Origin: Elusimicrobiota bacterium
GTDB taxonomy: Bacteria; Elusimicrobiota; Elusimicrobia; UBA1565
DNA length: 64,000 bases
Assembly (NCBI GenBank): GCA_041661185.1
Contig: JBAZUV010000004.1
Coordinates: 85,002 to 149,001 of the forward strand
Direction: 5' to 3'
Below, piece after piece: positions 14,468 through 16,084 of this stretch. Made by a program: the position numbers and the translations under genes. The notes below the pieces were generated by a model that was given only the letters and a program-made list of their open reading frames with translations, did not search any database and was not told the origin of the DNA. How positions within the stretch are numbered: the first letter of the stretch is position 1; the number at the start of each line of letters is the position of its first letter.

Positions 14468-16084
14468 TCACGCCGCCGCTTCCATCAGATCGAGATAGGC
14501 CCGCAGATGCACCCCGGTGTCCGCCATCCGGGAATACGACACCCAGGCCACGGGCAAGCCCTTTTCCGAGACAATATGAGAGAACGCCCCCCGGAACTCC
14601 TCCTCCCGTCCCGCCAAGTCGGTCCCAGGCGGAGGCCCGATCATGAGCGCGGCGGCTGCGCCGGTCCCATCGAGCCGCGCGGCTGCGGAAAAAGGCGCGC
14701 CGAAGACCTGCGCCGGATCCACGGCGATGAAGGACCCCGGGCGGAAAGGGAAAGGCCAGCCATTGGTCTTGGCCGCCTCATGAAGACGCCAGAAGAGCCA
14801 GGCCGCGGCGGACTCCTTTCCGGTCGGATACAGGAACGCCACCGGCTTCGGACCCGCTCCCGCATCGGACGGGACCTCGCGCAGCTGCGCCTCATCCGGA
14901 ACGCCTTCCACGGCGTCAACGGAAGCGACCGCGGGGATGAGGTCTCGCAGGCCCGCGGGCCGATGCACGGCCTCCAGCAGGGCCCTGAGCCGTCCCACGC
15001 GGCGGACCGCGCAGAGCGCCTCGTTCCAACTCCCCTTCACGCGGCCGCGAAGCTCCTCCACATCCGAGGAGTCCACGGCCCAGCCCGCGGCCTTGAACAG
15101 CCGCGTGAGCGTCTCCGCCTGGACTTCGGCGGTGGGCGTCTTCAAATCTCCGGACCAGCCCGCGGCCAGACGGAATTTCAGCGCCTGCTCCAGGCCGCCC
15201 AAGAGCCGGGCGGGATACGCGGAGGTCATCATGACCTGCCGCCTCTTGTCGAGGAACGCATGCAGGACCGTCGAGAGGATCGCAGTGCTCTCCTCCCGGA
15301 CCTCCAAGAGATGGACATCGTCGATGAACAAGGCGCAGGAATCCTTGGCCAAGGCTTCGAGTTCCGCGGTCTTCTGGGATCGAGCAGCCTGTGCGGCCGC
15401 GGCCGACAGGCGCGGGCCTGAAGTCCTCCAGACCACGGCGCCTGCACGCTGAGCCGCCGTCTGATTGGCTACGGCATGAATGAGATGCGTCTTGCCGGAA
15501 CCTGCGGGCCCGGCCAGAAAAAGAGGATTATAGAGTTCGCCGGGACTCGAAGCCACGGAGGCCGCCACGGCATGCGAGAACCGGTTGAATGAACCGACCA
15601 TGAGGTTCTCGAAATTCATGTCCAGCCGCGGCGCGACGCAGGCGGCGCCCACGGGCTGCACGGCAGGAGCAAGCGCCGCCGCAGGCACGGCGGGTCCCCA
15701 CTGGCCCGCGGATTCCGCAGACGCAGGGGGCTGCACGGACGCCGGAACAGAAGGCGCGGACGCAGGCAAGGGCTCCTCCCGGCGTACGGGCTCGATAACG
15801 CGGATATCCGGGGCAAGCGCCGGCGCAGGAGAAGTCGCAGCGCCTCCAGGACACAGGGCTTTGAGCACGGCCCGTATCTTCTCGAGGACCTCGGGCTTGC
15901 CTCCCGGAAGGCTCAGGCTGTAATTGAAATCCTTGTCCCCGGACTCCCGCCTGGGACGGCCGCAGGACACGCTGATGCGCCGCACCAGCACCTGCAGGTC
16001 CGAGGCCGCGGCCCGCACGAAAAGCCGATGCCTGTCAGGGTCCCGTTCGCTGGGATCCGGCCGCAGCTCCCATCGCTTGATCAT
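14468..16084 (-). CDS. DnaA-domain-III-like AAA+ ATPase with N- and C-terminal extensions and no DnaA domain IV, 538 aa
   Basis: FENLMVGSFNRFSHAVAASVASSPGELYNPLFLAGPAGSGKTHLIHAVAN and IDDVHLL...MTSAYPARLL align motif-by-motif with DnaA/Hda box III. No HTH DNA-binding domain. Its start overlaps the upstream stop (ATGA). Confidence 0.75.
   Translation of the reverse strand: MIKRWELRPDPSERDPDRHRLFVRAAASDLQVLVRRISVSCGRPRRESGDKDFNYSLSLPGGKPEVLEKIRAVLKALCPGGAATSPAPALAPDIRVIEPVRREEPLPASAPSVPASVQPPASAESAGQWGPAVPAAALAPAVQPVGAACVAPRLDMNFENLMVGSFNRFSHAVAASVASSPGELYNPLFLAGPAGSGKTHLIHAVANQTAAQRAGAVVWRTSGPRLSAAAAQAARSQKTAELEALAKDSCALFIDDVHLLEVREESTAILSTVLHAFLDKRRQVMMTSAYPARLLGGLEQALKFRLAAGWSGDLKTPTAEVQAETLTRLFKAAGWAVDSSDVEELRGRVKGSWNEALCAVRRVGRLRALLEAVHRPAGLRDLIPAVASVDAVEGVPDEAQLREVPSDAGAGPKPVAFLYPTGKESAAAWLFWRLHEAAKTNGWPFPFRPGSFIAVDPAQVFGAPFSAAARLDGTGAAAALMIGPPPGTDLAGREEEFRGAFSHIVSEKGLPVAWVSYSRMADTGVHLRAYLDLMEAAA

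Follow-up and report, generated by a model that had tools for sequence, protein, structure and literature searches.

A protein family derived from DnaA, and previously uncharacterised, is found across the phylum Elusimicrobiota. The member described here is encoded on the minus strand of a 64,000-nucleotide stretch of an Elusimicrobiota contig (hereafter, the window; Table 1). It keeps DnaA domain III only, that is, the AAA+ core with its lid and with the helical insert that separates Walker A from Walker B, and its gene is co-transcribed, in a predicted operon, with those of a PilT-family ATPase, the motor of pilus retraction, and of a second protein, X. We estimate at roughly 40% the probability that the protein is neither an initiator nor of the Hda type and serves as an ATP-dependent oligomeric adaptor or sensor linking PilT-driven DNA uptake to DNA catabolism.

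Table 1. Features of the predicted operon and of the DnaA-like protein, in window positions (nt)
Feature	Position	Strand	Size or residues	Remarks
Triosephosphate isomerase (TIM)	19440-20246	(-)		Pfam TIM, E = 2.4e-93
DeoC-family aldolase	about 18751-19425	(-)		Pfam DeoC, E = 1.2e-18
Small double zinc-ribbon protein	18444..18746	(-)	100 aa	Weak DZR/rubredoxin-like matches
PilT/PilU-family type IV pilus ATPase	17364..18434	(-)	356 aa	TIGR01420, 406.8 bits (cut-off 319.1); T2SSE, E = 2e-44
Gene X	16081..17337	(-)	418 aa	N-terminal acidic amphipathic helix (KEIEEILSDLDGILNDL), long Pro/Ala repeat linker, C-domain
45-bp tandem repeat in X	16506..17085	(-)	12.9 copies	Encodes the Pro/Ala linker of X; TRF, 94% matches, score 894
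C-domain of X	16084-16452	(-)	res 296-418	Homologous to the C-domain of the DnaA-like protein
DnaA-like gene	14468..16084	(-)	538 aa	ORF with ATG start; PF00308 match; exact match to P0001
N-terminal domain	15836..16084	(-)	res 1-83	beta-beta-alpha-beta-beta-alpha; invariant G42-R43-P44
Pro/Ala-rich disordered linker	15635..15835	(-)	res 84-150 (~67 aa)	Unalignable; length varies across the family
DnaA-type AAA+ module with lid	14915..15634	(-)	res 151-390	Walker A GPAGSGKTH (K198), Walker B D255-D256
C-terminal Rossmann-like domain	14471..14848	(-)	res 413-538 (~125 aa)	Four strands and four helices in the model
LPP20-like lipoprotein	13982-14428	(-)		Pfam/NCBIfam; downstream in operon
LipL46-like lipoprotein	12850-13977	(-)		Pfam/NCBIfam; downstream in operon
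GNA1162/DUF799-like lipoprotein	12168-12827	(-)		Pfam/NCBIfam; downstream in operon
CsgG-like lipoprotein	11231-12166	(-)		Pfam/NCBIfam; downstream in operon
Intrinsic terminator-like hairpin	11177..11212	(-)		16-bp stem, 10 G-C pairs, T-run; operon end

Domain layout of the protein and extent of the family

In Pfam searches, residues 156–310 matched the Bac_DnaA ATPase family (PF00308, E = 1.4e-28, 100.5 bits), and residues 157–384 aligned to the B. subtilis DnaA structures 8bv3 and 8btg (E about 1e-21). All of the DnaA-type motifs that an earlier note on this DNA had read in the middle of the protein were found (NRFSHA, YNPLFL, GPAGSGKTHL, IDDVH and MTS), and the gap-free spacing from Walker A to Walker B relative to DnaA indicates that the initiator-specific helical insert is retained. 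Bac_DnaA_C (PF08299; domain IV) and DnaA_N (PF11638; domain I) gave no Pfam match at E < 0.1 in the 538-aa protein, and structure prediction modelled the C-domain as an alpha/beta sandwich, not an HTH, in keeping with the note's statement that the domain IV HTH is missing. The same note had described N- and C-terminal domains of about 150 aa each with a Pro/Ala-rich spacer; the layout stands, with sizes revised to about 80 aa for the N-domain, 67 aa for the linker and 125 aa for the C-domain. The N-domain is ACT/SUI1-like and, with the linker, takes the place of DnaA domains I and II; its first residues (MIKRWELRP) fit the family consensus M..RW.IR.

The C-domain is conserved at P420, Y455, F465, G483-P484, F497, H503 and D532, and the Tyr at 455, present in 97% of relatives, is Val in the window protein. 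In rigid-body comparisons, the modelled domain appears closest to the MID domains of Argonautes, a method-dependent result in that Foldseek placed lumazine synthase first. No conserved basic quartet like the Y-K-Q-K 5'-phosphate pocket was found among 140 C-domains, in which only H503 is of the basic type (H, R or K in 93%); PIWI gave no match in the DnaA-like protein or its neighbours, and no PAZ domain is attached. To our knowledge, no other descendant of DnaA combines its AAA+ module with an ACT-like and a MID-like Rossmann domain; literature searches likewise gave none, and they returned nothing on this DnaA-like family or on the lipoprotein set encoded downstream. A defence role for the combination of AAA+ and MID-like domains was considered and rejected. 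PADLOC gave a weak generic AAA+ match only (mad8, 15.6 bits, E = 0.002), and, in contrast to mobile defence islands, the gene keeps to a single conserved position in almost every genome examined.

The identical protein is recorded at NCBI, JGI, ENA and Logan (P0001 carries the name 'DnaA/Hda family protein [Elusimicrobiota bacterium]'); contigs from two independent assemblies, those of ENA and Logan, were read. The same architecture was found in about 35 Elusimicrobiota species genomes, and the C-domain is carried by 178 cluster representatives, at the C-terminus in every one. The agreement of the independent contigs and this terminal position exclude a misassembled C-terminus, which the earlier note had raised against its own reading. 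All six tested among the long C-domain representatives (947–2568 aa) also carried a Bac_DnaA AAA+ module, which begins as late as residue 2179 in relatives. Members of the family also occur in gut Elusimicrobiaceae and in the complete genome CP096137.1, and every member with a source-named organism belongs to Elusimicrobiota.

Catalytic residues and the question of an initiator role

Walker A and Walker B are invariant across 43 family members. The Arg-finger column is variable (S in 21, R in 11, Q in 7, K in 3 and H in 1), the sensor-2 Arg is gone in 42 of the 43, and the sensor-1 sequence TSDR has become TS[ALVMI]Y. The corresponding residues of E. coli DnaA are R285 (Arg finger), R334 (sensor 2), D269 (sensor 1) and R281 (box VII). 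At the two positions that the earlier note had marked for inspection, the window protein retains the finger Arg (R305) and has N354 for the sensor-2 Arg; A289 replaces the sensor-1 Asp (TSAY for TSDR), and A301 replaces R281. The clade of the window protein has lost four residues, namely the Arg of sensor 2, the Asp of sensor 1, the first Arg of box VII and the hydrophobic residue of the H-motif, and often the Arg finger as well. The proteins of this clade probably bind ATP but hydrolyse it poorly, and would thus serve as a scaffold or switch and not as a motor. Because the lost H-motif residue is tied to ssDNA binding in DnaA, such binding is doubtful for the window protein.

With the DnaA equivalog model TIGR00362, the window protein scored 120.2 bits against a cut-off of 343.9, over profile positions 107–291 of 437. 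Neither the window nor any of about 45 related loci has dnaN, recF or gyrB beside the gene, the gene neighbours being compared with those of a canonical DnaA locus (L093). The conservation of the AAA+ core only, the new end domains, and the presence of PilT and of DNA- and deoxyribose-breakdown neighbours make a job other than the start of replication most likely, and we infer that the protein is not a replication initiator. The suggestion in the earlier note that it was recruited to another function thus agrees with a gene context that points away from replication.

The family also includes less-derived orthologues, here called L042-type, in which all canonical catalytic residues of DnaA are intact, as is the hydrophobic residue of the H-motif. 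They resemble the window protein in their N- and C-domains (E about 3e-10 each in the L042 protein, whose AAA+ scores 232 bits on PF00308) and in their place between PilT and a GAF kinase or RecJ, beside DeoC, but differ from it in their intact canonical AAA+ residues and in an identity of only about 22%. These proteins lack domain IV and reach 365–373 bits on TIGR00362, above the cut-off. Examples from Elusimicrobia/Endomicrobiia (MDD5687029.1 and MBN1822866.1) are named 'chromosomal replication initiator protein DnaA' by NCBI, a name explained by their AAA+ part, which by itself (profile positions about 50–360 of 437) carries them past the cut-off. Found in many Elusimicrobia/Endomicrobiia MAGs, the label can lead origin prediction, completeness checks and comparative replication studies astray.

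It is extremely improbable that we are dealing with a genuine initiator, whether truncated, misassembled or fitted with a Rossmann-like domain in place of the HTH. The NCBI name would speak for one but is explained by the TIGR00362 match; the canonical DnaAs P0277 and P0013 trace to contigs unrelated to the family genomes. Against an initiator, the architecture is repeated in many independent assemblies, the gene never adjoins dnaN, and E. minutum was reported to have a dnaA-dnaN-recF-gyrB operon (PMC5109545). We give just as little credence to the DnaA-like protein being the sole DnaA homologue in some lineages; for the window protein, such a role is unlikely because of the four residues lost from the AAA+ module and its H-motif. 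Two leads to the dnaA of the phylum were dropped. L046, a candidate canonical Elusimicrobia DnaA, proved to be a short family member without the N-domain. The dnaA of Ca. Endomicrobium trichonymphae was described as a pseudogene (PMC5174739), but the 69% GC of the MAG contig so labelled (L019) makes that identity implausible.

The operon, protein X and the conserved neighbourhood

Upstream in the window lie genes for a 5'-nucleotidase, TIM and DeoC, the last two (18751..20246) directly preceding the zinc-ribbon and PilT genes with gaps of 4–14 bp. From TIM to the CsgG-like gene, neighbouring genes overlap by 4 bp or are separated by 1–39 bp, up to a strong terminator. In the window, the ATG of the DnaA-like gene overlaps the stop codon of X as ATGA (4 bp), and 4-bp overlaps are also seen in related loci. 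The place of the zinc-ribbon gene between DeoC and PilT is conserved, and the four downstream lipoprotein genes (11231..14428), with visible lipobox-type N-termini, occur as a set in only a subset of related loci. A scan for sigma-70 promoters from 10.5 to 23.5 kb, which is uninformative for this phylum, gave none.

The C-domain of X aligned with that of the DnaA-like protein at an hhalign probability of 95.8% (E = 6.6e-9, 116 columns). This homology is significant only with deeper alignments, and earlier comparisons were non-significant (pairwise BLASTP, E = 0.85; shallow hhalign, P = 0.004–0.009 and probability 2–8%; hmmsearch). The X of the window was matched by profile to the X proteins of loci L092 and L042, and the X protein of L042 also carries the family N-domain. 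Two proteins with a common C-domain behind long disordered linkers represent a defined, testable interaction module.

Across the phylum, the order DeoC, PilT, X and DnaA-like is kept amid deoxyribose- and nucleoside-catabolism genes, in most cases with a GAF histidine kinase next in line, over proteins that are only 22–49% identical. Among 43 non-redundant sequences, 26 loci had DeoC upstream, 26 had PilT upstream and 30 had the kinase, many of the others being truncated; where the sequence extends far enough upstream, the PilT–X–DnaA-like triad almost always has DeoC, RpiB and TIM beside it. PilT and X do not adjoin the gene in L010, L038, L041, L023 and L024. Low-GC loci follow the order TIM, PTAC, RpiB, DeoC, PilT, (X), DnaA-like, GAF kinase or RecJ, transketolase, phosphopentomutase, PNP, thymidine phosphorylase and RecJ, the phosphopentomutase, nucleoside phosphorylases and RecJ being additions of the four low-GC loci. 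Neither comEC, comEA nor pilus assembly genes other than pilT were seen in the loci. The functional reading rests on this gene neighbourhood in genomes from one phylum, and synteny extends over more than 20 kb (from a bacterial microcompartment [BMC] locus to comM and dprA), so that the linkage may in part reflect an inherited order of genes and not function.

The kinase and lipoprotein genes raise the alternative that the protein is a component of two-component signalling or of an envelope and outer-membrane lipoprotein system (CsgG-, LPP20- and DUF799-like), unrelated to DNA, in which the AAA+ module would be an ATP-dependent scaffold for the GAF kinase. This kinase is cytoplasmic, and in L001, L003, L006 and L007 its gene has a 4-bp overlap with the DnaA-like gene; in the window, the lipoprotein genes continue the operon up to the terminator. 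However, the kinase is missing from the window, L040, L041, L091 and L092, and the lipoprotein set occurs in only some high-GC loci and in none of the low-GC ones. DeoC and PilT are the steadier neighbours. We consider this alternative unlikely. A factor that positions microcompartments, by analogy with McdA/McdB as an ATPase with a disordered partner beside an SPU-type BMC locus, is very unlikely. In its favour, 21 loci of the high-GC clade have the triad immediately after a BMC locus that encodes shell proteins, EutN, aldehyde dehydrogenase, RpiB and DeoC, and long disordered linkers occur in both X and the DnaA-like protein. Against it, neither the window nor the low-GC loci L042, L088, L089, L091 and L092 contain shell genes, and these low-GC loci still have DeoC, PilT and the DnaA-like gene.

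The nucleoside-metabolism neighbours could also supply nutritional input to a regulator of the true initiator, which would co-oligomerise with DnaA filaments or cap them through its AAA+ faces and tune initiation, perhaps by nucleotide or deoxyribose supply; this widens the idea of the earlier note. The near-canonical AAA+ of the L042-type proteins (Arg finger, sensor 2, box VII and lid), with its high TIGR00362 scores, would be expected if DnaA–DnaA interfaces were selected. However, in the window's clade the decay of the Arg finger, of sensor 2 and of the Arg in box VII would cripple both filament chemistry and any stimulation of the RIDA type, the close link to PilT and X would have no obvious role, and the gene never lies beside dnaA, dnaN or recF. 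In addition, when the N-termini of the 43 family members were scanned by regex, none showed a clamp-binding motif of the QL[SP]LPL type, and the Hda model TIGR03420 gave 45.6 bits against a cut-off of 194.8. Together with the variable finger and the lack of a dnaN, recF or gyrB neighbour, these results speak against the RIDA-like regulator of DnaA envisaged in the earlier note. We infer that the DnaA-like protein is not an Hda-type inactivator, and a role in regulating the initiator seems improbable.

Proposed function and comparison with known systems

As an adaptor or sensor between PilT and DNA catabolism, the reading we prefer, the DnaA-like protein would couple type IV pilus-mediated DNA uptake to cytoplasmic handling and catabolism of DNA or deoxynucleosides. 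The common C-domain would dock the DnaA-like protein and X to each other or to a shared partner such as PilT, and the GAF kinase would give a signalling output where present. A narrower version, which we offer only as a tentative possibility, is 'nutritional competence'. The DnaA ATPase, which forms filaments on ssDNA, would have been fused to a MID-like Rossmann domain and reused, with X and a dedicated PilT, to receive or sense pilus-imported DNA on its way to RecJ, nucleoside phosphorylases and DeoC, in some lineages within an SPU microcompartment. If the preferred reading, drawn from gene context, is true, a whole phylum reuses the ATP-dependent assembly chemistry of the initiator for DNA uptake or scavenging, and the system would offer a new way into the coupling of type IV pilus retraction to cytoplasmic events.

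The non-replicative descendants of DnaA are few, namely Hda, DnaC/DnaI and IstB. The DnaA-like protein shares with DnaC, DnaI and IstB an initiator-clade AAA+ module, ATP binding for assembly and the lack of an HTH, but its scores on the models of these proteins are low and secondary (IstB_IS21, 28 bits; NF038214, 38 against 200; DnaI, 15.6 against 228), and no helicase or transposase partner was found in the locus. The possible resemblance of its C-domain to the MID domains of Argonaute/PIWI proteins, which depends on the method, comes without detectable sequence similarity, homology being unproven. Like Hda, the protein has a DnaA-family AAA+ module and no domain IV. However, Hda is about 230–250 aa long, carries an N-terminal beta-clamp-binding motif and needs its Arg finger for action, whereas the DnaA-like protein, at 538 aa, has two extra folded domains and a finger that is not conserved across the family; the earlier remark that Hda-like proteins are much shorter was thus correct. 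The family differs from DnaA itself in the absence of the domain IV HTH and of domain I, but shares with it the NRF.HAAA box, YNPLFL, GxxGxGK[TS]H, DD, the box VII sequence LE..L...G and the lid, and its plan of a small N-domain, a flexible linker and an AAA+ module mirrors DnaA domains I, II and III.

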